The position numbers and the translations under genes were made by a program. Below are positions 77 to 31,198 of a stretch of DNA of 32,000 nt, in pieces (position 1 is the stretch's first letter; each line of letters starts with the position of its first letter). The stretch covers positions 1,320,001-1,352,000 of the forward strand of contig NC_006624.1 of the NCBI RefSeq assembly GCF_000009965.1. Direction: 5' to 3'. This DNA comes from Thermococcus kodakarensis KOD1. Its GTDB lineage: Archaea; Methanobacteriota_B; Thermococci; Thermococcales; Thermococcaceae. The notes below the pieces were generated by a model, which ran no database searches, was not told where the DNA came from, and saw only the letters and a list, made by a program, of their open reading frames with translations.

Positions 77-154
77 GGACCGGTAGCCTAGCCAGGATAG
101 GGCGGCGGCCTCCTAAGCCGCAGGTCCGGGGTTCGAAGCCCCGCCGGTCCGCCA
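77..154 (+). tRNA. tRNA-Arg (anticodon CCT), CCA encoded
   Basis: Hand-folded cloverleaf. Acceptor GGACCGG/CCGGTCC, anticodon stem GCGGC/GCCGC with loop CTCCTAA, T arm CGGGG-TTCGAAG-CCCCG, discriminator G followed by CCA. Confidence 0.92.
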
Positions 155-156
155 TA

Positions 157-397
157 GAAACTTTTCTAATGAAAAGTTTCACCAAAGAGCGAATGTCCTT
201 TTGAGCGCCCTGCTTTTCAGTGATTCTCACAATCAATTTGCAATTCTCAAGGGGTTTGCTCGGAGTATAACGCCCAAAGGGCGTTAAAAAAGAAGAAAAA
301 CCCGCACTTCCCTGCCCATCCATCAAGAGAATCTAACCTTATCAAGCCAATTCTCGGAGACATTCGAGCTTTTGGTGAAGCTTTTCCAAAAAGCTTC
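157..397 (+). repeat. Hairpin-delimited non-coding repeat unit A1
   Basis: Bounded by perfect palindromes at 157-180 (GAAACTTTTC-TAAT-GAAAAGTTTC) and 377-397 (GAAGCTTTT-CCA-AAAAGCTTC). Central GC hairpin at 269-285 (AACGCCC-AAA-GGGCGTT) followed by an A-rich tract. About 85-90% identical by eye to 29324-29560. Confidence 0.9.
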
Positions 398-657
398 AGC
401 GCTGGCGGAAGATTGGTATGCTTTCTTTTTAGATATGCCTGCTTTTGAAGGGTTTACTTCCAATTGGCTGATTCAAAAGGATTTTCTCACCGTATAGTGC
501 CCGAAGGGCACTAAAAAGAAAGTCAAAAATCACAATTAGCGCGGGGATTTTGGAGTTAAACCCGCGCGAGCCTGCCTTCTTGAGAGCATACACTCCCTAA
601 CAGGCGAGATCGAGGAGAAGGGCACACACTTTTGGTGAAGCTTTTTCTAAAAGCTTC
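398..657 (+). repeat. Hairpin-delimited non-coding repeat unit B1
   Basis: Starts AGCGCTGGCGGAA. Central hairpin at 496-512 (AGTGCCC-GAA-GGGCACT) followed by AAAAAGAAAG. Ends in palindrome 637-657 (GAAGCTTTT-TCT-AAAAGCTTC). Homologous to 947-1204 (~70% by eye). Confidence 0.85.
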
Positions 658-946
658 CTGCGCGAAGTTTGATCAAGGTTCGTAGCTCTTTTTCGGAATG
701 CCAATTCACCGTGATTTTCCAACTCAAATGGCTTTTTGAGAGTGAGAACCCTTAATCCACCCTGTCAACTCGTGTTTAACTCTAAATCGGCGCCCTTTGG
801 GCGTCAAAGAAAAGAAAACACCCTCTTCAAGAAGCTTCCTAAAAGGTTCTCACTCAAAAATGAGCACTTGCAGTCTAAAATCCTAAAATAAAACCCTCTT
901 GAAGAAGAGCTACAAACTTTGATGAAACTTTGCCTGGCAAAGTTTC
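658..946 (+). repeat. Hairpin-delimited non-coding repeat unit C1
   Basis: Starts CTGCGCGAAGTTTGATCAAGGTTCGTAGCTC, shared with 29561-29633. Central hairpin at 789-805 (GGCGCCC-TTT-GGGCGTC) followed by an A-rich tract. Ends in palindrome 924-946 (GAAACTTTGC-CTG-GCAAAGTTTC). Confidence 0.8.
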
Positions 947-1204
947 AGCGCCGGCGGAAAAGAGGTATGCGTTTTTAATGAACTAATTTTTGAGTGGGTT
1001 TACTTTCGAGTTGCCAGACTTACAGGATTTTCCCCACAGTATAGTGCTCTTTGAGCGCTAAAAAGAAAGTTCGAAATCACAATTAACGAGAGATTTTTAA
1101 GAACAAACCCACACGCGAACCTGCTTTCTGGGGAGCATACACTCCCGATAAGCAAAGTTCGAGAAGAAGGGCACACTTTTGGTCAAGCTTTTTCCAAAAG
1201 CTTG
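947..1204 (+). repeat. Hairpin-delimited non-coding repeat unit B2
   Basis: Starts AGCGCCGGCGGAA. Central hairpin at 1043-1059 (AGTGCTC-TTT-GAGCGCT) followed by AAAAAGAAAG. Ends in palindrome 1184-1204 (CAAGCTTTT-TCC-AAAAGCTTG). Confidence 0.85.
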
Positions 1205-1274: not shown

Positions 1275-2036
1275 ATGGTGTACGTGGCCGTTCTTGCAAA
1301 CATCAACGGCAACCTTCCAGCACTGGCAAAGGCCCTTGAAAAGATAGAGGCCCTAAAGGAGGAAGGGTACGAAATAGAGAAGTACTATGTTCTGGGCAAC
1401 ATCGTTGGTCTGTTCCCGTACCCGAAGGAAGTCCTTGACGCTCTTGATGACCTCATCAGAAACAACACAGTCAAGGTCATCAGGGGTGAGTTCGACCAGG
1501 TAATAGCCGAGAGCGATCCCCACGCGGAAGGACCGGACTACATTGACAAGGTTGAATATCCCGACTACATAAAGAAGGCCCTCAAGTACACCTGGGAAGC
1601 CCTTGGTCACGAAGGGCGCGAGTTCATAAGGGACCTTCCAATATACCTTGTCGACAAGATTGGAAAGAACGACATATTCGGAGTCTATGGAAGTCCTCTG
1701 AACCCGTTTGGAGGAGTTGTACTGCCAGACCAGCCGACCAGCTACTACGAAGCCATCATGAGGCCGGTCAAAGACTATGAGATACTCTTTGTTGCATCAC
1801 CCAAGTATCCGGTCAACGCTATGACCCGCTACGGTAGGGTCATCTGTCCCGGAAGCATTGGATACCCACCGGGCAAGAACCACAAAGCAACCTTTGCCCT
1901 CGTTGATGTGGACACTCTACACACCAAGTTCATAGAAGTGGACTATGATGACGAGAAAAAGCTCATAGAGGAGAAAATCAAGAAAGAGGGCCTTCCGGAA
2001 GAGCTTATCAAGATACTCTATCATGGAAAGGTCTGA
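1275..2036 (+). CDS. Calcineurin-like metallophosphoesterase homolog (Metallophos_2 / YfcE-like fold) with degenerate metal-binding motifs
   Basis: ORF 1266-2036. The ATG at 1275 has better spacing from SD GGAGGTGGT than the GTG at 1266. The motif layout matches the family but the key residues are replaced (ANINGN, LGNIVG, RGEFD, VYGSP, VASPKYP, then CPGSIGYP). Confidence 0.75.
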   Translation: MVYVAVLANINGNLPALAKALEKIEALKEEGYEIEKYYVLGNIVGLFPYPKEVLDALDDLIRNNTVKVIRGEFDQVIAESDPHAEGPDYIDKVEYPDYIKKALKYTWEALGHEGREFIRDLPIYLVDKIGKNDIFGVYGSPLNPFGGVVLPDQPTSYYEAIMRPVKDYEILFVASPKYPVNAMTRYGRVICPGSIGYPPGKNHKATFALVDVDTLHTKFIEVDYDDEKKLIEEKIKKEGLPEELIKILYHGKV

Positions 2037-2041
2037 TCCCT

Positions 2042-2341
2042 TTAACCTTTTTTGAATCCTAAGTAGAAGCCTGCAACAAACGCACCAGTACCTGGGAGTA
2101 TCCCAAGAGCCTTCTGTCCAAGACCTAGTACCTGCTGGGTCACGTTCTCACTCAGGTTGAAGAGCTTGTCAGTGTTTATTGTTATCACTCCCTTCTGCTG
2201 AAGCCAGAAGAGGCTCAAAAGGTAGGCTCCTATTAATGTCATCACGATTTTCACGAACTTCTTCAGTGCATACCCTGTTACAAAGCCCACTATAGCACCA
2301 ACGCCCAGATCCCCGAACATACCGCTCATATCGAACTCCAT
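2042..2341 (-). CDS. FUN14-family small membrane protein
   Basis: 99 aa, glycine-rich with three hydrophobic segments (GAIVGFVTGYALKK, LIGAYLLSLFWL, GTGAFVAGFYLGFKKG), typical of the FUN14 domain. SD GGTGGT precedes the ATG. Confidence 0.7.
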   Translation of the reverse strand: MEFDMSGMFGDLGVGAIVGFVTGYALKKFVKIVMTLIGAYLLSLFWLQQKGVITINTDKLFNLSENVTQQVLGLGQKALGILPGTGAFVAGFYLGFKKG

Positions 2342-2399
2342 GAGACCACCACTAACAAATCGGGCGAGAAGAAAGATAAACCTTTTGTTGGCAAAACCC

Positions 2400-2409
2400 T
2401 TAAATTATA
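2400..2409 (+). promoter_or_regulatory. TATA box (TTAAATTATA) for the PadR-family gene
   Basis: A/T box ~45 nt upstream of the ATG at 2450. SD GGGTGAGATC lies immediately before the start. Confidence 0.5.
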
Positions 2410-2449
2410 TGGATCTAAAATATTTCACAAAGAACAAAAGGGTGAGATC

Positions 2450-2779
2450 ATGACAACCCCCCTAGAGAGATTACAGAACAAGATTACAAAGGAAGTTCTG
2501 TGGCTCTACATACTCCGGCTTTTGAAAGAGCGCCCCATGTACGCATACGAGCTAAAGGAGAAGATAAAAGAGGCTTTCAACTTTGAACCTGCCACAGTCA
2601 GCTCTTACGTGGTGCTTTACAAGCTTGAGAAAGAGGGATATGTAACCTCAGAATGGCAGGAAACGACAGGAGGTAAACCGGCCAGGAAGTACTACAAGCT
2701 CACACCGAAGGGCGAAGAACTCCTAAAAGAGGGAATAAACTTCCTCGAAGAAACATTGAAAAAACTGAAGGGGGAGTGA
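2450..2779 (+). CDS. PadR-family winged-helix transcriptional regulator
   Basis: 109 aa. YAYELKEKI...SYVVLYKLEKEGYVTSEW...KPARKYYKLTPKGEELL is the canonical PadR wHTH signature. Confidence 0.88.
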   Translation: MTTPLERLQNKITKEVLWLYILRLLKERPMYAYELKEKIKEAFNFEPATVSSYVVLYKLEKEGYVTSEWQETTGGKPARKYYKLTPKGEELLKEGINFLEETLKKLKGE

Positions 2780-3082
<303 letters not shown>

Positions 3083-3122
3083 GCGAGGGAAAGTAAAGCG
3101 AGGGGCGTTAAAAATTTTCCCC

Positions 3123-3728
3123 TCAGGTCCTTATGATCCTCATCTCGAAGTCCTCAACCGGTATCTTGAAGTCTTCCCTGCTCTCGATCTCCTTCCTGTT
3201 GTAGAGGACTTCCCTGGCAAGTATCCAGTAGATGAGGGCGAGAGCCTTCCTGCCCTTGTTGTTGGTTGGGATTGCGATATCAACGTAGCTCAGGAAGTTC
3301 TCGGTGTCAACGAGGGCCACTATGGGTATTCCAATCTCAACGGCCTCCTTAAGGGCCTGGTGGTCGGCCCTCGGGTCGGTAACTATGAGAACGTCGGGCT
3401 CAATGAAGTTCTTGACCTGAGGGTTGGTCATAGTTCCTGGAAGGAAACGACCGGGTATAGCTTTGGCGCCAGTGACCTCACCGAACTTCTTAACGGGCCT
3501 CTGGCCGTAGAGCCTGACGCTCACGGCAAGTATGCTCTCGGGGTCGAACTTGGCAAGGAACTTTCCAGCGACACGAAGCCTCTCATCGGTCTTCCTAACG
3601 TCGAGGACGTAGAGTCCGTCCTGCCTTACCCTGTATATGAACTTCTTCATGTCCTTGGTCTTCTGCTGGGTTCCGATGTGGACACCGGCAGCAAGGTACT
3701 GGTCGAGCGGAACGAGATACTCCTCCAC
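3123..3728 (-). CDS. rps2: 30S ribosomal protein S2 (uS2)
   Basis: 201 aa with clear uS2 sequence ([33 protein letters not shown]). GTG start preceded by GGAGGTG. Confidence 0.96.
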
Positions 3729-3741
3729 CTTTCACACCTCC

Positions 3742-4767
3742 TCATCCTTCAAACGTTATCACCCTACCCCTTTCACCAAGGTCTTCGGCTATCCTTATCA
3801 GCTCGTTGAGCTTGGCGATGGAGTCCTTGCGGAGCACCACCGCCGGACACCTAAAGCCCACGGCCATGTGGGCGAGCGCCTCGTCGGAGGACTCAAAACG
3901 AGCCTCCGCGAGGATTGGAACAATCCTCTCCGACTTTGCGTCGTTAATAAGGTTGTATAAGTCGGTGAGCGTGCCCAGATTTATCGGCTTTATGGACAGG
4001 GCGTTGTAATAGCGCCTGTCTAGTATGTCCTTCTGGCGGAACAGGTACTCCCCATCTATAAAAACCCCGTGAGTTCCGGCAATAAGCTCAAGGAAGAGCT
4101 CCTCATCACCCATTGGCTTTAGATAAGCCACGTTGTTGTCTTCAACGAGGGTCAGCAGTTTTTCCATGTCCATGGGAGCCTTCTGGGCGAGTCCCAGGGC
4201 GACATCGAGACCGAGTTCACTGCTGGCTTTTTCTGTCGCCTCCGAGTATCCTTCAACAGTCGCCTCTTTGAGGTTGGAGAGCACGCCGTTTACGGCATCA
4301 ACAACATCGGTTATCTCCATCAGGTCGCGCACCATTACGTAGTAGTCAAACTCACTGTCGCTCGCGAACTCAAGTATCGGGACTGGGAGTTCGGTGGTGA
4401 ACGTCCCGCCAAGGTAAGTGTAGAGCGGAAGGTTCTTCTCGCTGGCTGCTGCCTTTGCCGTGGCAACCGATACGGCTAAGGCCGTGTTTGCACCGATGTG
4501 GCTGAAGTCCTCGGTGCCGTCTATCTCCCACAGATAGCTGTCTATAAGCTCCTGCTCCGTTGCGTCAAACCCGATAAGCTCTGGCCCTATTATCTCGTCA
4601 ACCTCACTGACGGCCCTGTGGGCTTCCGCTATGTAGAGGTCAGGATTCTCGTCTACCGGGGCGGCGAACCTGCCAAAACCCGAGCTAGTTATAACGTCAA
4701 CCTCAACCGAATACCTGCCGCCCCTGAGTACTGTTACCCTGCCGACTATGTTCTCTATCACCGTCAT
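3742..4767 (-). CDS. Enolase-like protein (short, divergent paralog; probably not a functional enolase)
   Basis: 341 aa. Enolase-like blocks are present (IGANTALAVSVATAKAAA, NALSIKPINLGTLTD, KLNELIRIAEDLG). It is ~90 aa shorter than enolases and its catalytic blocks are diverged. Confidence 0.75.
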   Translation of the reverse strand: MTVIENIVGRVTVLRGGRYSVEVDVITSSGFGRFAAPVDENPDLYIAEAHRAVSEVDEIIGPELIGFDATEQELIDSYLWEIDGTEDFSHIGANTALAVSVATAKAAASEKNLPLYTYLGGTFTTELPVPILEFASDSEFDYYVMVRDLMEITDVVDAVNGVLSNLKEATVEGYSEATEKASSELGLDVALGLAQKAPMDMEKLLTLVEDNNVAYLKPMGDEELFLELIAGTHGVFIDGEYLFRQKDILDRRYYNALSIKPINLGTLTDLYNLINDAKSERIVPILAEARFESSDEALAHMAVGFRCPAVVLRKDSIAKLNELIRIAEDLGERGRVITFEG

Positions 4768-4773
4768 CTCTCA

Positions 4774-4947
4774 TCAGCTCGGCCTTATTACGGTGATCGG
4801 TATCACACCCTTCTCGAACTCGAGGAGAGCCGCCTGAAGGGGAGTAATTCCCTCGGGTACATCGATTAGCACCGGGGCTCCCATCGCTATCTGGAGAGCC
4901 CTGGCTCCAATGATGCGGGCCTTTTCAAAGCGGGTGTACCTAAACAC
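4774..4947 (-). CDS. rpoK: DNA-directed RNA polymerase subunit K (Rpo6)
   Basis: The conserved core is (M)[59 protein letters not shown] start at 4947 follows GGGGTGGT. The track ORF extends to 5022 and runs into tRNA-Pro. Confidence 0.88.
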
Positions 4948-4983
4948 GACTACCACCCCACTTCCTGTGCACAGATCAAATTT

Positions 4984-5061
4984 TGGTGGGGCCGCCGGGA
5001 TTTGAACCCGGGTCTCCGGCACCCCAAGCCGGGAGGATAGACCAAGCTACCCCACGGCCCC
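4984..5061 (-). tRNA. tRNA-Pro (anticodon GGG), CCA encoded
   Basis: Reverse complement is GGGGCCG...CCGGC-TTGGGGT-GCCGG...CCGGG-TTCAAAT-CCCGG-CGGCCCC-A-CCA. Confidence 0.9.
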
Positions 5062-5078
5062 GCCCAGAAATGCGGTTT

Positions 5079-5276
5079 TTAGTAGACTTTATAAACCATT
5101 ACCTGGTCGATCAGCTCTACGTGGCTCAGCAAGGTTCTCCTGCAGCAGTACCTCTCAACGCCGAGGTCGTCGAGGACCTTACCCGGGTCTTCCCCGGCCT
5201 CAACCCTCTTCTTGAACTCGTAGTACTTGTCTGCGAGCACCTTTCCGCAGGTGAAGCACCTGACGGGGACTATCAT
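5079..5276 (-). CDS. rpoN: DNA-directed RNA polymerase subunit N (Rpo10)
   Basis: 65 aa, [21 protein letters not shown]...RYCCRR zinc motif. SD GAGGTGTGA. Confidence 0.95.
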
Positions 5277-5308
5277 TTTTCACACCTCAAAGGGTTAAAG
5301 GAAAGGCA

Positions 5309-5716
5309 TCAGCGGTATGACTTCTGCCTCTTGGCCCTCGGACCCTTGGTTGAGCGGTTGGGCTTGTGAGGCTCGGTTCTCCTGCTGTCGCCGACGAGCA
5401 TTGTCCTGTCGTACTTCATAAACTTTTCCTTCAGGTTCATGTCGTTGGTCCACTCAACGAGGGCCCTGGCTATGGCAACTCTAGCTGCCTCAGCCTGGCC
5501 CATGAAGCCTCCGCCCTCAACCTTGACGTCTATGTCAACCCTGCTGACGATCTCTTCACCTGCAAGGATGAGCGGCTCCATGATGGTGAAGCGCGCTATC
5601 TCCGGCTCGATGATCTCGACGGGCTTGTGGTTGATCCTGACGCGGCCCTTTCCTTCCCTTATGGTGGCCCTCGCAACGGCCGTCTTCCTCTTACCAGCAG
5701 TCTGGATGACCCTCAT
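5309..5716 (-). CDS. rps9: 30S ribosomal protein S9 (uS9)
   Basis: [29 protein letters not shown]...KSYR. The ATG at 5716 follows GAGGTGAGAAAG. The 24-codon track extension overlaps rpl13. Confidence 0.93.
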
Positions 5717-5726
5717 CTTTCTCACC

Positions 5727-6155
5727 TCAGAACTTTCCACCGAGGAACTTCGCGACCTCTCCAACGGTAACGTACTTCGGAGTGGCAAGCCTCGACATGT
5801 GGGCCTCGCTTATGGTCTCGAACTCCTTGCCCTCGAACTCCTTGGGAACTCCGACGTAGACCTTGAGCCTCTTGAAGGCCTTCCTTCCGCGGTCGGTCTT
5901 CCAGGGGAGCATGCCCCTAACAGTTCTCCTGACGATCTCGTCGCTCCTCTTCGGATAGAACGGGCCCCTCCTCGGGTTGGTCCTGGTTCTGAGCTCGGTC
6001 CTCTGCTTGTACTTGGCGAAGATGTCCTCCCTGTTGCCGGTGATGATGGCCTTTTCGGCGTTGACGATGACTACCTCCTCGCCCTCGAGGAGCATCTTGG
6101 CGACCTTCGAGGCGAGCCTTCCGAGTATGAGTCCTTCAGCGTTAATTATCCTCAT
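5727..6155 (-). CDS. rpl13: 50S ribosomal protein L13 (uL13)
   Basis: 142 aa, [40 protein letters not shown]. Confidence 0.95.
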
Positions 6156-6161
6156 GGCCCA

Positions 6162-6527
6162 TCACTCCATTATGATTACTCCACTACCCTTCGGGTTTCT
6201 CTCCATAAGCTCCTCAATGCTTATGGCCTCTCCACCGGCCTCGATTATCTTCCTCCTGGCTGCCTCGCTGAACTTCCAAGCTGCAACGACGACCTTGTGC
6301 TCAAGCCTTCCTGCACCGAGGACGCTTCCCGGGACGATAACAACGTCGCCCTCCTTGGTATAGCGGTTGATCTTGCTGATGTTCACCTCAGCCCTCTGCC
6401 TCCTGGGCCTCTCAAGGCGCCAGGCGATGTCCTTCCATATCTTGACTCCTTCCTCGTTTGACTTTTTCCTGAGGGTGCGGATGAGCCTTCTCAGGTTAAT
6501 ATCGGTCGGTCCAGTTCTCTTAACCAT
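6162..6527 (-). CDS. rpl18e: 50S ribosomal protein L18e
   Basis: [31 protein letters not shown]. The second ATG (6527) has proper spacing from GGAGGT; the first ATG (6533) abuts it. Confidence 0.9.
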
Positions 6528-6588
6528 GAACATACCTCCTCAAAGCTCTCGCAGGGAAACCGACAGTCGGACGGGGTGAGCGTAATTA

Positions 6589-6676
6589 TGGTGCGGGGGC
6601 GGGGATTTGAACCCCGGAACCCCTGCGGGACGGGACCCTGAATCCCGCGCCTTTGGCCAGGCTCGGCTACCCCCGC
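6589..6676 (-). tRNA. tRNA-Leu (anticodon CAG), long variable arm, CCA encoded
   Basis: Reverse complement is GCGGGGG...CGGGA-TTCAGGG-TCCCG...CGGGG-TTCAAAT-CCCCG-CCCCCGC-A-CCA. The 5' end lies 1 nt from the rpoD stop. Confidence 0.92.
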
Positions 6677-6677
6677 G

Positions 6678-7457
6678 TCAGTCGGCTAATTTATGGAGCT
6701 CGTTTATAAATCTATCGCTCTTCCTCATGAGTATTTTGAGCGCTATGCTCACGATTTCCTCAACGGGAAGTTCACCATTCGTTTCGACGGTAAACACGAA
6801 TGAACCGGGCACTATCTCCTCTCTGATCCCCTTACCCATGTGCTCCTCGAACTTCCTGGGAAGGTAAAAGGCCTTTATCGTGGTTATGACTATCTCCTCA
6901 TCACTCTCCTCGACGGGGAGTCCACGCCTCTCAGCGAGCTCTTTGAGCTCCTCCCAGTCGGGAACGTCTTTGCTGACGTGTATCTTGGTCAGGTACTTGT
7001 AGTAAACGAAGCCCGGTTGCCACTTGGCGTGATCCTTTCCGCGGCCGAGCCTCGCATAAGCGTTGAACGTTAGCCTTTGTCCTTCTGCGAGCTTTACTAT
7101 GGGGATGTTCGGGTTGGCGGGCTTTACATCTCCATCGCTACTCTTGAGGTCGCCCGAGTACACCATGCCAGGGCCCTCAGCCTCAAGCGAGAGGGTAACC
7201 GTGTAGTCATCAAGCTCAAGGGCATCGAGCGAGAACCTCTCATGAGGAGTCGTGAGCGGTATCATGGCAAGCCTGTGCGCTATTATCTCGTCGAAAAGTG
7301 CAGAATCGTTCTCTAGGAACTCGACCTCATCAACGGCAAAGGTTGGGACTTCCGAGAGAATAGTCCTTCTAAGGGCGTTCGCGAACGGTACATCAACGCC
7401 GCTGACGATGAACTTTATTGAGTCGGGCCTCTTCTCAAGAATCTTGAACTCTACCAT
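6678..7457 (-). CDS. rpoD: DNA-directed RNA polymerase subunit D (Rpo3)
   Basis: [46 protein letters not shown]. The start is ambiguous: ATG at 7457 (preferred, after GGTGATG), ATG at 7463 or TTG at 7469. Confidence 0.9.
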
Positions 7458-8951: not shown

Positions 8952-9038
8952 TGGCGCCGGGACGGGGATTTGAACCCCGGTGGCCATACGGCCACGGGCT
9001 CTCAAGGCCCGCGCCATCCCAGGCTAGGCGATCCCGGC
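8952..9038 (-). tRNA. tRNA-Ser (anticodon TGA), long variable arm, CCA encoded
   Basis: Reverse complement is GCCGGGA...CGGGC-CTTGAGA-GCCCG-TGGCCGTATGGCCAC-CGGGG-TTCAAAT-CCCCG-TCCCGGC-G-CCA. Confidence 0.92.
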
Positions 9039-9611: not shown

Positions 9612-9632
9612 GGTCGGGGATTCGATAAGGGG

Positions 9633-9640
9633 TTTATAAA
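9633..9640 (-). promoter_or_regulatory. TATA box (TTTATAAA) placing the transcription start at or near the methyltransferase ATG (leaderless)
   Basis: The palindromic TTTATAAA is centred ~26 nt upstream of the ATG at 9611. There is no SD in between. Confidence 0.5.
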
Positions 9641-9651
9641 GGTGAAGGAGC

Positions 9652-10449
9652 CTAAAATCCCCGTATTATGTCCCACACAACAGCCACACCTACTGCTCCA
9701 ACGACAAGGAGGACAAGGAAGCCAAGCTTTTTGTGCTTCGGGAATACGTAGGCTTCAGCGGCACCGAAGGCAACACTCTGAGCGGACAATAGGAGAAGGT
9801 TTTTGACGAGATGCTCACTTCTGCCCAACCTCAAAAGTTCATCGACCATCTCAAGAGAAGAGCCCCCTACAGTGTGTCCCAGGAGATAGACACCAACCAG
9901 CAAACCGGCACCGAAAAGGGAGGTCTTTATAATCCACAGGCCGAGGTCCCTAGCCGATGTTACCGTCCATTCCTTCCCAGAGGCGAGAGCATACAAAGTG
10001 AGGGGAATGTCTAATATCCACTGCACCATGAGGAGGAAGATAGGGATAAACGAAAAAATTTCCAGAAACATGGCGACCACGGAAATTGCCGCCCCCACAA
10101 CGTTTCCGGTTAAAAAGAGGGCCATGCCGAGCAGATACCAAACGATTATGTGATGACCAATTATTTCCTGTACATCCTTCACAAACCTGTCCCTGCCCCA
10201 GTTCTCCTCGAGGATTACGTGGAGCCGCTTAAAGTCTTCCCTCCGATATCCGTGCTTCTCAAGATGGCGGCCGATGAAAAAGAGAGCAGAAACTCCGAAG
10301 AGCGGGAGAAGTGCAAACATCGTCACGAGCAGTCCAGCATCTATGGTTTCGCCACCACTGCGGGCCCCCAAAAAGAGGAGGGCCATTAATATGGAAATCA
10401 TACCAACAACGGTCTCAATTATCAGCTTGAGGCCCTTCCTCCCCTCCAT
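9652..10449 (-). CDS. Uncharacterized polytopic membrane protein
   Basis: About 265 aa with at least six hydrophobic segments and no motif I recognise. The ATG at 10449 follows GGGGTG; the track start at 10458 is a GTG. It lies 30 nt downstream of cbf5. Confidence 0.6.
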   Translation of the reverse strand: MEGRKGLKLIIETVVGMISILMALLFLGARSGGETIDAGLLVTMFALLPLFGVSALFFIGRHLEKHGYRREDFKRLHVILEENWGRDRFVKDVQEIIGHHIIVWYLLGMALFLTGNVVGAAISVVAMFLEIFSFIPIFLLMVQWILDIPLTLYALASGKEWTVTSARDLGLWIIKTSLFGAGLLVGVYLLGHTVGGSSLEMVDELLRLGRSEHLVKNLLLLSAQSVAFGAAEAYVFPKHKKLGFLVLLVVGAVGVAVVWDIIRGF

Positions 10450-28429: not shown

Positions 28430-29200
28430 TCAATCCCTCCTTATGAGATTAAATATCGCGAGGGTTGCAAGCAATGCCTCCTCGGTGCGGACCGTTTCAG
28501 TCCGCTGATTTGGAATGGTGTTGAGGATCAGATGGAACTCAAACTTCTCCTCGCCGAGGAGCTCCATCACGCCTTTCCTCGGTGAGCCGAACACGAAACC
28601 GACCTCCCCCTCGAGCGGGGGGATCTCAACCTCTCTTATGTCGCGACCCTTCCTCGAGGTCGCGATGACCAGATCAAGCCCGGCCTTTTTAAGTGTTTTC
28701 GCCAGCGACTTCCTCGTGAGGTGAACCCTGTAGCCCCAGTAGTCCTCCGGTTTTGTCGGGACGACCCTCAGAGGTCTCGTCGAGACGATTTTGAACGTTG
28801 CACGCCCTTCAACGTTCCCTTCAACGACCGCCAGCTCATCGAGGCCGATGTCCGCGTAAGTTCTTTTCCCCCTTCTGAAGGCGAAACCCTCTCGGATTTC
28901 GCCGACCCTTGGCCTTCCCTTGAGTTTGTGGTGCGGCGTCCTCAGCGGCGGTATCACTCCCACGTACTTGAGCTCGGGCATCAGCGGGAACAGCCTCTTC
29001 CTGAGGTACTGGGGGGTCTCCGCGTACTCGAGGACGGTCTTGATGAACTTTCCGTCCCTGCCGCCGGCCCTGTAAATCCAGATGTGCTCAACGCCGAATA
29101 TTGAACAGGCCCTGGCTACCTGTCCGACCTTGTACGTTCTGATCTTTGGGTCGTCGGTCTCTTCGAGGAGCGAATCGGGAATGAAGACGTGCCAGGCCAT
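28430..29200 (-). CDS. SPOUT-superfamily putative RNA methyltransferase (DUF171 / COG2106 type) heading the rpl3 operon
   Basis: [43 protein letters not shown]...VFGSPRKGV...[25 protein letters not shown]. The ATG at 29200 is preferred, because the track start at 29284 lies upstream of and across the TATA box at 29257-29265. The stop is 1 nt from the rpl3 ATG, within AGGAGGGATTGAG. Confidence 0.8.
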
Positions 29201-29256
29201 TTTTCCGTCATCCTTTGATGTGGTAGCTCCAATGCTGAACTGGGGTCTATGGAGAC

Positions 29257-29272
29257 TATTTAAAAGGCTTTC
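29257..29272 (-). promoter_or_regulatory. BRE + TATA (CGAAAGCC-TTTTAAATA on minus strand) for the SPOUT-rpl3 operon
   Basis: The minus strand reads GAAAGCCTTTTAAATAGTC. The TATA centre is ~60 nt upstream of the ATG at 29200. Confidence 0.6.
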
Positions 29273-29323
29273 GAACCTTTCCACCCTCTTTTGGGTTGAG
29301 GAGTGTGAAATTTTTTTGCAAAG

Positions 29324-29560
29324 GAAACTTTGCAGGGCAAAGTTTCATCAAAGAGTGAATGTCCTTTTGAGCGCCCTGCGTTCAGTGATTCTCAATCATT
29401 AATTGGCAATTCTCAAGGGTTTACTCACAATATAACGCCCAAAGGGCGTTAAAAAATAAGAAAACCCGCACTTCTCCGCCCATCTATCAAGAGAATCTAA
29501 CCGTATCAAGCCAATCCTCGGAGACATTCAAACTTTGGTGAAGCTTTTCCCAAAAGCTTC
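29324..29560 (+). repeat. Hairpin-delimited non-coding repeat unit A2 (copy of 157-397)
   Basis: Bounded by palindromes 29324-29346 (GAAACTTTGC-AGG-GCAAAGTTTC) and 29540-29560 (GAAGCTTTT-CCC-AAAAGCTTC). Central hairpin at 29434-29450 is identical to 269-285. Confidence 0.9.
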
Positions 29561-29820
29561 CTGCGCGACGTTGAAGCTTCGCTTCAACGCACGGGACGAT
29601 AGTCCCGTTGAGTTTGATCAAGGTTCGTAGCTCATCCTTAAAAAGCTAGATTTCACGCGATTTTCTTCTTTGGAAAGCCAGTTTGAACATGAAAACACTT
29701 GAAATACCTTAGTTGTGTTGGTTTTAACTCCAAAACCAACGCCCAAAGGGGCGTCAAAAGAAAAATTAAAAAATTCCTGAAAGCATCCGACGAACGGCAA
29801 GAGCGACAAGGGAACCACCC
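29561..29820 (+). repeat. Hairpin-rich non-coding repeat unit C2 (related to 658-946), apparently ending at the ATPase gene
   Basis: Shares CTGCGCGA...AGTTTGATCAAGGTTCGTAGCTC with C1. It has extra perfect hairpins at 29569-29589, 29591-29608 and 29717-29740. The central hairpin at 29739-29754 is followed by an A-rich tract. Confidence 0.75.
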
Positions 29821-29821
29821 C

Positions 29822-31198
29822 TTAAACTTGGGTCTTTGAGGAAATAAGCCTTTCGAAGTCTCCTAAATCCCATACTAACCAGCCATCATCCCTGAGCTCT
29901 TCCTTTCCCTCGACGCTTTTAGCCACAAGCCCATAGCTCTTCTCCCATCCATCGAGGCCCGTAAGCTCGGCCTTCCTCTCCAAGTCCTTCAAAACCCCCC
30001 TCGCTTCCCTCTCTTTGAGCTCCTTCCACTTAACCTCAACGAACAGCGCCTTCTTTTCACGCTCGTTGAGGGCAACGAGGTCAATCTCCTCGCCCTTGTG
30101 CCACCAGCGGCCGAAGCGGTGGTACAAGCTGGGAAGGTGCCCCTTGGCCGAGAGCATTATCAGGAACTCCCTCGCAACCTTTTCGAAGGTAGTCCCCAGG
30201 TAGGTGTTGAAGTTCTTCCTGAAGTCCTCTATGGCGGGCTCAGGATTGAGGCCCTCAATGTCCTCATAGTGCGGGCTGACGAAGCGGTAGTAGAAGCGGA
30301 AGTACTCATCCTCGATTGTGTAGATCCCCCTCTTCGAGACCCTTTTGGTGACCGGAACCTCGCGCTTGACTATTCCAAGATTCTGGAGAACCCGAAGGTA
30401 GGCCGGAAGGTCCTTCGCCTCCATCATCGCGTACTGGGAGATCTCGGTGAGCCTCGTCTTCCCCAGGGCTATGGCCTCGATGATCTGGGCGTAGGTCGTC
30501 GGGTTTCTAAGCTCCTCCATTAGCAAAAGCCTCGCCTCGTTGAAGAGGAAAGCCGTTGGCTCAAAGAAGTTCGCGATTATCTCCTCGTCGCTCCCGTCCT
30601 TTAAGAGCTCCATGTACCTCGGAACTCCCCAGGTGACGCCGTAGAGGCGGACGAGCCTCTCAAAATCGCTCCCGTACCATTCCACCATGTCAAAGAACCT
30701 GAAGGGCTTCAGCTTCATTATACCCCTGGCCCTGCCGTAGAGGGGAGCCTTGTAGCCCAGAACCTCCCGCTCCATCATCCCCACACTTGAGCCCGAGAGG
30801 ATGAGGGTGACCTGGGAGTCCTTGATTATGAGGTCTACTATCTCCTGGAACACTGAAACTATGGGTCTGTAGGCCTCTATGAGATAGGGAAACTCATCGA
30901 TTACCACTACGAGCTTTCCCTGCTTTGTAAGGAACCTAAAAGCGTCCTCAAAGCTCCCGAACCTCACTGGCATACCAATGAACTCGCTCACTTCCTCCGA
31001 GAACCGTTCGAGGTCCTTTTCATACCCCCTCTGAGAGCACAGGAAGTAAATCCCCCTCTTGCCCTCAAGGAACTTTCTAAGGAGTGTTGTTTTCCCAACT
31101 CTCCTCCGCCCGTACACTACAATCAGGTTTGCCCCTCTGTTGTAGAGCTCCTCCAGCACCTCAAGCTCCCGTTTTCTGTTCACGAATTTACGGATCAT
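29822..31198 (-). CDS. Archaeal AAA+ ATPase (Arch_ATPase/COG1672 type) with wHTH and a DUF234 C-terminal domain (PD-(D/E)xK-like)
   Basis: 458 aa. N-terminal FVNRKRELEVL, Walker A GRRRVGKTT, Walker B VVVIDEFPY. A central wHTH-like block is TYAQIIEAIALGKTRLTEISQ. The C-terminus reads GRWWHKGEEIDLVAL...ALFVEVKWK. Confidence 0.85.
   Translation of the reverse strand: MIRKFVNRKRELEVLEELYNRGANLIVVYGRRRVGKTTLLRKFLEGKRGIYFLCSQRGYEKDLERFSEEVSEFIGMPVRFGSFEDAFRFLTKQGKLVVVIDEFPYLIEAYRPIVSVFQEIVDLIIKDSQVTLILSGSSVGMMEREVLGYKAPLYGRARGIMKLKPFRFFDMVEWYGSDFERLVRLYGVTWGVPRYMELLKDGSDEEIIANFFEPTAFLFNEARLLLMEELRNPTTYAQIIEAIALGKTRLTEISQYAMMEAKDLPAYLRVLQNLGIVKREVPVTKRVSKRGIYTIEDEYFRFYYRFVSPHYEDIEGLNPEPAIEDFRKNFNTYLGTTFEKVAREFLIMLSAKGHLPSLYHRFGRWWHKGEEIDLVALNEREKKALFVEVKWKELKEREARGVLKDLERKAELTGLDGWEKSYGLVAKSVEGKEELRDDGWLVWDLGDFERLISSKTQV

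Follow-up and report, generated by a model that had tools for sequence, protein, structure and literature searches.

Hairpin-ended intergenic repeats in Thermococcus: two arrays beside the ribosomal-protein cluster of T. kodakarensis KOD1 and their relatives

The repetitive extragenic palindromes (REPs) of Proteobacteria, with the REPINs and bacterial interspersed mosaic elements (BIMEs) built from them, are mobilised by Y1/HUH proteins of the RAYT type. They are short extragenic palindromes in inverted pairs, such that the element folds as one long hairpin; they form mosaic arrays, are positioned after the 3′ ends of genes, carry compensatory changes, and are mostly inherited vertically with variation between species. 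These features of form and arrangement apply also to a set of repeat units in Thermococcus kodakarensis KOD1, two arrays of which lie within a stretch of 32,000 nucleotides that we have analysed (the window; genome coordinates are window coordinates plus 1,320,000, according to the published gene table of Jäger 2014). The window contains, in order, tRNA-Arg(CCT) (TKt25), TK1492, a minus-strand cluster for ribosomal proteins, RNA polymerase and SecY, and then TK1543, TK1544 and TK1545. Locus 1 (157–1204) occupies the gap between tRNA-Arg and the TK1492 promoter, and locus 2 (29324–29790) that between the stop codon of TK1544 and the promoter of the TK1543–rpl3 operon. The differences from REPs are, nevertheless, considerable. 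The palindromes of a unit are 190–260 bp apart, compared with tens of bp in REPINs; AYCAAAG is the conserved flank, a GTAG or CGTC head being absent; the host is an archaeon; there is a marked preference for the 3′ ends of tRNAs; and no RAYT was found among the genes beside the approximately 20 arrays examined.

The foldback MITEs (miniature transposable elements with inverted repeats), amongst them Correia/NEMIS, ERIC/IRU and the MITEs of Sulfolobus, provide another comparison. Like these, the Thermococcus units are 240–300 bp in length, contain no open reading frame (ORF) beyond short, unconserved ones, have terminal inverted repeats of 30–45 bp, are intergenic, fall into multiple subfamilies and are transcribed into small RNAs. 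They differ in that there is no target-site duplication and no known parent insertion sequence with the same ends, that each terminal repeat is a perfect hairpin, and that the units abut each other and the ends of tRNAs precisely. Integrons, too, have arrays of modules that are bounded by foldable imperfect palindromes and vary in order between relatives. Here, however, there is no intI, attI or Pc, the modules are non-coding and their neighbours are housekeeping genes; the palindromes are of 21–25 nt rather than 57–141 nt and lack RYYYAAC/GTTRRRY cores, and there are two hairpins per module rather than one. In the Thermococcales, repeated intergenic sequences that give small transcripts have been reported from Pyrococcus abyssi (sRk48/52 and sRkB/C; Phok et al. 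2011, PMC3124441). By their description, those loci are fragments of the 3′ end of tnpB (orphan IS200/IS605 OrfB), whereas the present units are symmetric, with neither an ORF nor a tnpB remnant. The family is most like the REPINs/BIMEs or the foldback MITEs, yet it fails defining tests of each known family. A previous reading of the window, made from its letters alone (the sequence-only reading), had likened the arrays loosely both to integron attC sites and to REP/BIME mosaics; we consider the latter comparison apt and the former unsupported, there being no integrase, attI, ORF cassettes or GTTRRRY core.

A dispersed family of hairpin-ended units

Both loci consist of members of a dispersed, apparently undescribed Thermococcus family and are not a local duplication. 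The family is found in at least eight named Thermococcus genomes and in approximately 13 contigs from vent metagenomes. Besides KOD1, copies occur in Thermococcus sp. 18S1, T. peptonophilus, T. nautili, T. cleftensis and T. thioreducens, and many more are contained in the genome text of the T. nautili lineage in the supplements of Cossu et al. 2017 (PMC5495485). A scan of metagenomes for the hairpin pattern gave at least 13 array-bearing contigs of Thermococcus-like G+C, in which the arrays are neighboured by unrelated housekeeping genes (topoisomerase, rhomboid, XPD-like helicase, Cbf5 and ScpB). KOD1 itself has three arrays: A-B1-C1-B2 after tRNA-Arg, C′-A′-B′-solo hairpin-C″ after tRNA-Met, and A-C between TK1543 and TK1544. 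The tRNA-Met copies are 84% (C′ to C1), 81–82% (A′ to A1 and to A2) and 82% (C″ to C2) identical to those of the window, and the right end of B2 (1175–1204) is the same as the right end of C′ (genome about 1,127,6xx) over 30 nt (ACTTTTGGTCAAGCTTTTTCCAAAAGCTTG). The ending of one Logan contig (L002) at the C2/A2 junction was dropped as a sign of a multi-copy repeat, another contig (L001) spanning the region.

Comparison with other sequence collections gave little. No Rfam family other than the tRNAs exceeded its gathering score, and neither locus gave anything with an E-value below 0.09; blastn against 72,556 plasmid and 50,697 phage records returned no match; scans of viral contigs (IMG/VR) returned nothing beyond short matches in very AT-rich contigs. 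A loose form of the hairpin pattern, run against genome contigs, recovered terminator-like hairpins of bacteria, with no Thermococcus among the matches listed. No description of the family was found in the full-text literature; most subscription journals lie outside that search, and an earlier description is possible.

A complete unit has the form hairpin-AYCAAAG, a central GC hairpin flanked by T/A runs, and CTTTGRT-hairpin. The terminal hairpin module comprises 21–25 nt, with a stem of 9–10 bp ([G/C]AA[A/G]CTT..), a loop of 1–5 nt and AYCAAAG on the inward side. The survey on which these figures are based covered 278 kb of Thermococcus DNA and yielded 15 complete units and 56 flanked hairpins, all intergenic. 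The complete units measure 237–306 bp, and each is an imperfect long palindrome with inverted end modules; by blastn, units are weakly self-complementary over their full length. AYCAAAG is found on exactly one side of a hairpin (left in 22 cases, right in 21, on both in none) and is the sole conserved flank, the outer flanks being variable. Because it sits on one side only, the terminal hairpins cannot be spacers shared between units. The subfamilies distinguished are A (in KOD1), B, C-I and C-II (C units being of about 300 bp), D (about 303 bp) and E (about 270 bp). Subfamily B differs at its left end, where AGCGCTGGCGGAAG stands with no hairpin. In C-II, two adjacent GC hairpins, with stems of 9 and 7 bp, stand in for the 5′ arm of the left hairpin; their position is conserved and they show compensatory changes between the KOD1 copies and a metagenome contig (window 29569–29608; L271 6914–6955; L254 2885–2930). 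The left hairpin of C1, a C-I unit, lacks its 5′ arm, CTGC and GCGAAGTTTG being left before ATCAAGG. C2 stops after its central hairpin, and 29791–29820 is non-repeat sequence. Short, GC-rich linkers that form mini-hairpins, GGGGGCGTGGGGGCGTTAGCCCCCC and GTGGGGCGAAGCCCCAC, are found repeatedly between the units of several species (L123 9234–9260 and 9531–9573; L147 6975–7000; L127 9520–9543; and the T. nautili text) and are absent from the KOD1 arrays; they may represent a second small repeat module.

The sequence-only reading held that unit A of locus 1 recurs at locus 2 in the same orientation, approximately 85–90% identical, and that it is followed by B at the first locus and directly by C at the second, C standing after B1 at the first. 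All of this is borne out. By blastn, 157–397 and 29324–29560 are 87.6% identical over 242 columns (E 2.5e-68), in the same orientation; after the hairpin ending in AAAAGCTTC, locus 1 continues as AGCGCTGGCGG (B1) and locus 2 as CTGCGCGA, the sequence that stands after B1 at locus 1. Across the junction into C, 39 nt (631–669 and 29534–29572) are 92% identical, and the same succession of hairpin and CTGCGCGA occurs at three places in KOD1 and at a metagenome locus (L254), where the left-end architecture is also that of C2. The same reading placed the switch at the last base of the palindrome. That the junction lies at a shared hairpin is correct; its placement to the base is not supported, because A1, A2 and B1 have in common TTTGGT and the GAAGCTTTT..AAAAGCTTC hairpin, and the crossover could have been anywhere within this module of 27–29 nt. 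The loop of the right hairpin of A2, CCC, is nearer to that of A1 (CCA) than to that of B1 (TCT), weak evidence that the switch took place within the 3′ arm or where that arm ends. The units beyond the junction are less alike. C1 and C2 are 66% identical over 666–813 and 29611–29764, C2 having 43 extra nt that include its two GC hairpins (29569–29589 and 29591–29608); C2 is 82% identical to C″ over 76 nt and 65–68% identical to C1 and C′. B1 and B2 are 74.5% identical by blastn.

Placement and variation of the arrays

The strongest regularity of the family, which was overlooked by the sequence-only reading, is that its units abut the 3′ ends of tRNAs and stop codons. In 13 of the 56 flanked hairpins the hairpin starts 0–6 nt past the 3′ end of a tRNA, where about 0.04 would be expected by chance with uniform placement and about 0.4 within intergenic DNA alone; many different kinds of tRNA are represented, and in every case the unit is directed away from the tRNA. 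Three degenerate copies are seen after tRNA-Arg(CCT) in relatives, and in one array (L147) both ends abut convergent tRNA genes. At stop codons, hairpins are found at cbf5 in three genomes (L209, L266 and L267) and at a T. nautili gene whose TAG overlaps the hairpin. Most of the free-standing tRNA genes examined do carry a terminal hairpin, unlike the four within the ribosomal cluster of the window, which have none and are followed directly by coding sequence; because these four lack it, the hairpin is not a general feature of tRNA genes.

Comparison of orthologous intergenic regions, which had been proposed as a check on the mobility of the units, shows that their number, type and presence differ between species, and the arrangements in KOD1 cannot therefore be regarded as a fixed ancestral order. 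At the site upstream of the SPOUT gene, the A-C pair of KOD1 corresponds to three units of other subfamilies in Thermococcus sp. 18S1 and to a single D unit in T. peptonophilus; there is no unit in Thermococcus sp. P6 or in the genome represented by contig L125. After tRNA-Arg(CCT), KOD1 has four units, T. nautili one, T. cleftensis a fragment and T. thioreducens the hairpin alone, and in all four the hairpin begins 2 nt past CCA. The arrays at the SPOUT site, wherever present, end in the same way, the hairpin being followed by CTTTGCAAAAAAATT; in KOD1 this conserved sequence marks the edge of the array, 48 nt upstream of the TK1543–rpl3 promoter. The presence of a TATA box for this operon beside the array was correctly recognised by the sequence-only reading, TTCGAAAGCCTTTTAAATAG (minus strand, approximately 29256–29275) being conserved upstream of the SPOUT gene in five species.

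Differences in gene content were also noted at these sites. In T. peptonophilus (L127 8302–9447), the repeat unit is separated from the TK1544 orthologue by two extra genes, of 93 and 287 amino acids and neither matching Pfam, that KOD1 lacks. A conserved 28-codon ORF (MIEDALLLYLESMHREKRVKKKKGRLPF in T. nautili) is present upstream of the TK1492 orthologues in three species and is missing in KOD1, where the array occupies the space. Contig L125 has a tRNA-Lys (9826–9903) and wholly different upstream genes beyond the SPOUT–rpl3 promoter; the right border of the ribosomal block is thus a synteny breakpoint.

On the published map of KOD1 by differential RNA sequencing, orphan small-RNA starts (Jäger 2014, Table S6) lie within the arrays at window 419 (in unit B1) and 29820, both on the minus strand, and, in the tRNA-Met array, at genome 1127031, 1127285 and 1127691; further starts, at genome 1311406 and 1311594, are found just after tRNA TKt24 (Jäger 2014). 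Each of the five starts in the arrays is directed either opposite to the adjacent tRNA or from the neighbouring gene into the array. Jäger 2014 describes the orphan small RNAs as mostly species-specific, AU-rich and unstructured, and notes no repeat family. The start positions are non-homologous between paralogous units, which argues against dedicated RNA genes. Other clusters of AT-rich, ‘T. kodakarensis-specific’ orphan starts are recorded in the same table (genome 1040925–1041382, 1481727–1483882, 1723219–1726275 and others); these, some of which are beside tRNA genes, may be more arrays of the family. Oligo-T tracts are also present: the minus strand has T6 (29768–29773), T5 (29761–29765) and T4 (29756–29759), 48–66 nt beyond the stop codon of TK1544, and there is a T5 tract after that of TK1286. 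It is plausible that such tracts act as terminators. In the published table of differential RNA sequencing, read counts for TK1543 are approximately 3- to 40-fold above those of its co-oriented neighbour rpl3 (1970–6775 versus 69–2527), an indication of an abundant 5′ fragment, or else of a separate RNA that arises at the start of the operon. The coordinates of the features discussed are collected in Table 1.

Table 1. Features of the two arrays, their surroundings and related sites (window coordinates unless a genome or contig is named)
Feature	Position	Strand	Details	Source
tRNA-Arg(CCT), TKt25	77..154	+	CCA end 2 nt before array start	ARAGORN, Rfam, Jäger 2014 gene table
Unit A1, complete	157..397	+	Left hairpin 157–180, then ACCAAAG; central GC hairpin 269–285, then A-run	
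Unit A1, right end		+	CTTTTGGT, then right hairpin 377–397	
Unit B1	398..657	+	Left end AGCGCTGGCGGAAG without hairpin; right end CTTTTGGT and hairpin 637–657	
Unit C1 (type C-I)	658..946	+	Right hairpin 924–946; 84% to complete copy C′ at tRNA-Met	
Unit B2	947..1204	+	Right hairpin 1184–1204	
tRNA genes of the cluster, without hairpin	2995–3082, 4984–5061, 6589–6676, 8952–9038			
TK1543, SPOUT methylase	28430–29200			
TFB recognition element (BRE)/TATA promoter of TK1543 (SPOUT)–rpl3 operon	29251..29275	-	Conserved in five species	
Unit A2, complete	29324..29560	+	Hairpins: left 29324–29346, central 29434–29450, right 29540–29560	
Unit C2 (type C-II), truncated half unit	29561..29790	+	Central hairpin 29739–29754; A-runs 29756–29773	
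Unit C2, left end		+	CTGCGCGA, GC hairpins 29569–29589 and 29591–29608, AGTTTGATCAAGG	
Orphan small-RNA start TTS1349820_-	29820	-	2 nt past TK1544 stop, reads into C2	Jäger 2014 Table S6
TK1544, archaeal ATPase with DUF234 domain	29822..31198	-	3′ end towards array	
Third KOD1 array, after tRNA-Met	genome 1,126,849–1,127,899			Read from contig L271
28-codon ORF	L266 9808–9893; L267 9817–9902; L268 about 9762–9847			

Maintenance of the palindromes, and proposed modes of re-ordering and spread

The palindromy of the units is maintained and not accidental, as follows from covariation in the hairpin stems and in the arms of whole units. For the stems, sequences were sought by the flank and the 5′ arm, the 3′ arm being left free, and the control consisted of 3′ tails swapped among the sequences of the family. 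A perfect 9-bp stem was present in 45 of the 61 distinct seeds, compared with 7.3 expected from the swapped tails. Stem positions 1, 4, 8 and 9 each show two types of Watson–Crick pair with almost no mismatches; this covariation was counted by a script, since MAFFT did not align the hairpins, their loops being of differing length. For whole units, RNAalifold applied to seven C-type sequences gave 49 pairs, 26 of which have compensatory double changes, and the compensated pairs include long-range ones between the left and right arms (for example, GTGATTC/GAATCAC versus GTAGCTC/GAGCTAC). Folding z-scores, relative to shuffled controls, are between -5.0 and -7.9 on both strands, and the consensus energies of the strands are alike. 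A test for structure at the level of RNA, in which G:U and A:C mismatches are compared for strand bias, gave a balanced result with no asymmetry. We read these data as a constraint at the level of DNA, or on both strands, and not on one RNA.

We consider that the two loci are probably arrays of a dispersed, non-coding and non-autonomous Thermococcus repeat family, similar to REPINs/BIMEs and to foldback MITEs, that is re-ordered by recombination at its ends and has been spread by some form of transposition or insertion. Recombination between the conserved terminal modules of 27–45 bp would re-order the arrays. A and B have right ends that form direct repeats (TTTGGT and the same hairpin) approximately 260 bp apart, and locus 2 could be an A-B-C array from which B was removed by recombination or slippage between them. 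Since the order A-B-C recurs in two other KOD1 arrays, at tRNA-Arg and at tRNA-Met, loss of B is the simplest account of A-C at locus 2, and it would need no cassette machinery. The spread of the family would have occurred by some form of transposition or by hairpin-targeted insertion, its palindromy being kept at the DNA level; the oligo-T tracts that face incoming transcription, the small-RNA starts within the units, and the dispersed homology beside tRNA genes would all be side effects.

A number of observations weigh against such a history. Neither a transposase or integrase nor any RAYT-like gene adjoins the approximately 20 arrays examined, no target-site duplication is present at the solitary units (L261, L216, that of T. 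peptonophilus, and A1 of KOD1), and no pair of empty and filled sites with a clean insertion boundary was found. No near-identical copies were seen; the KOD1 paralogues are only 81–88% identical, so that there is no sign of recent transposition. The KOD1 DNA covered amounts to approximately 50 kb, and the 56 hairpins in 278 kb are therefore not a copy number per genome. The hairpin after tRNA-Arg(CCT) has been kept in four species in which the interior of the unit was replaced or lost, which looks more like a selected host element than decaying selfish DNA; a host function of the tRNA-proximal hairpin is possible. An origin from the ends of IS6-family elements, raised by a shared TGCAAAGTT, was also considered and ruled out, the units having neither the GG tip nor cTGTt.

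The retention of the hairpin after tRNA-Arg(CCT) also speaks for the alternative in which the units are host cis-elements, either terminators or insulators or a protection for RNA 3′ ends, that are copied by recombination or gene conversion and never by transposition. The start of the hairpin 0–6 nt after CCA or a stop codon would fit such a role, as would the T4–T6 tracts facing incoming transcription at TK1544 and TK1286 and the location of arrays either between convergent genes or in the interval from a 3′ end to a downstream promoter. We nevertheless judge it unlikely, because no oligo-U tract follows the terminal hairpin, the four tRNAs of the ribosomal cluster do without it and sites that carry arrays in KOD1 lack any unit in some species, while arrays of up to four units go beyond any need for termination and several subfamilies co-exist and are shuffled between sites. 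It might also be supposed that every unit encodes a structured small RNA, with the hairpins as signals for processing or stability. The orphan starts at 419 and 29820 and the three in the tRNA-Met array, each directed at the tRNA or at the neighbouring gene, could be cited in favour of this, together with the strong folding z-scores; but the two strands fold equally and their mismatches show no strand bias, the starts are at non-homologous positions in paralogous units, no canonical BRE/TATA could be read by eye at a suitable spacing from 419, Rfam gives no match, and most of the class is described by Jäger et al. as species-specific and unstructured. A system of this kind seems to us quite improbable.

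The sequence-only reading preferred cassettes that are exchanged or inserted at hairpins. It was right in so far as the units are modular, bounded by hairpins, repeated elsewhere in the genome and in other species, and variable in number and order at orthologous sites; insertion at the hairpins is counted as unsupported, each terminal hairpin belonging to one unit only rather than lying between units. In its stronger form, an integron-like system or a site-specific recombinase would exchange 250-bp cassettes at the terminal hairpins. Junctions do coincide with the ends of hairpins, KOD1 and T. peptonophilus share a conserved promoter-proximal hairpin in front of differing units, and a Thermococcus integrase of relaxed specificity is known (Cossu 2017, PMC5495485). 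The probability of such a system is, however, very low, given that no integrase adjoins any array examined, that the cassettes have neither ORFs nor an attC core motif, and that ordinary recombination at the shared 27–45 bp ends suffices. Still less credence can be given to the idea that tRNA-integrating viruses or plasmids (of the TKV or pTN3 type) decayed at their att sites and left the arrays as remnants. Many arrays do lie immediately 3′ of tRNA genes, which in the Thermococcales are the classic targets of integration; but others are away from tRNAs, there is no similarity to plasmid or phage records and only short AT-rich matches in IMG/VR, and no duplicated 3′ segment of a tRNA is present at the far end of any array, none of the 3′ half of tRNA-Arg being found in or beyond locus 1 and the same being true of the metagenome loci. 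Finally, a simple segmental duplication within KOD1 that brackets the ribosomal cluster might be suspected from A1 and A2, which are the closest pair seen and have the same orientation. It is refuted, as the sequence-only reading had anticipated: the C units next to them belong to different subtypes and share only 65% identity, KOD1 has a third array, and the modular units of the family occur at many unrelated sites in many species.

Possible role in chromosome inversions, and significance

Inversion breakpoints in Thermococcus have been mapped to pairs of oppositely oriented tRNA genes and attributed to the pTN3 integrase (Cossu et al. 2017, PMC5495485). The breakpoint pairs include different tRNAs (Leu/Thr and Leu/Gly), which were not recombined by the integrase in vitro, and ‘strictly conserved sequences’ are shown (S9 Fig) to follow the tRNA-Gly pair of T. 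nautili that inverted in the laboratory (Cossu et al. 2017). The sequence in that figure (CCA, then CA, then CAAACTTCGCCTGTGCGAAGTTTG ACCAAGGCTCGTAGCTCC ... GACGCCCTCGGGCGTC ... GGGGCTACAAGCTTTTGGT) is a C-type unit of the present repeat family. Cossu et al. treat the tRNA genes as the recombining sites and describe no repeat family; it is we who infer that the units are the substrate. In T. kodakarensis, three independent Logan assemblies (L269, at 9627–9934, L270 and L272), with flanks 100% identical to KOD1, connect the TK1492 promoter with the right end of C′ at tRNA-Met through the identical 30-nt hairpin module. Relative to KOD1, this junction would match an inversion of 193 kb. We do not take it as proof, and it may be an artefact, because the shared 30 nt equal k-1 for an assembler with k=31, which gives the same graph either way; 21 other contigs stop exactly at the 30-nt repeat. 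No such rearrangement is reported in T. kodakarensis strain TS559 by Gehring et al. 2017. We put forward only tentatively the proposal that hairpin-ended units 3′ of tRNA genes may be the true recombination substrates of the exceptionally frequent inversions in Thermococcales, which would explain the breakpoint pairs of different tRNAs, and that T. kodakarensis stocks may harbour polymorphism for a 193-kb inversion whose ends are the tRNA-Met and tRNA-Arg arrays and whose crossover lies in the identical 30-bp module.

The family would add an archaeal, hyperthermophile counterpart to the REPIN/BIME-type elements, with an unusual targeting to the bases that immediately follow a tRNA or stop codon. 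Through it, orphan small-RNA starts of the model archaeon T. kodakarensis acquire a family identity; five are in the arrays examined, and others cluster near further tRNA genes. The arrays of the window flank the conserved block for ribosomal proteins, RNA polymerase and SecY, the borders of which are synteny breakpoints in some relatives, and the units are a candidate for the dispersed homology behind the tRNA-linked inversions of the Thermococcales.

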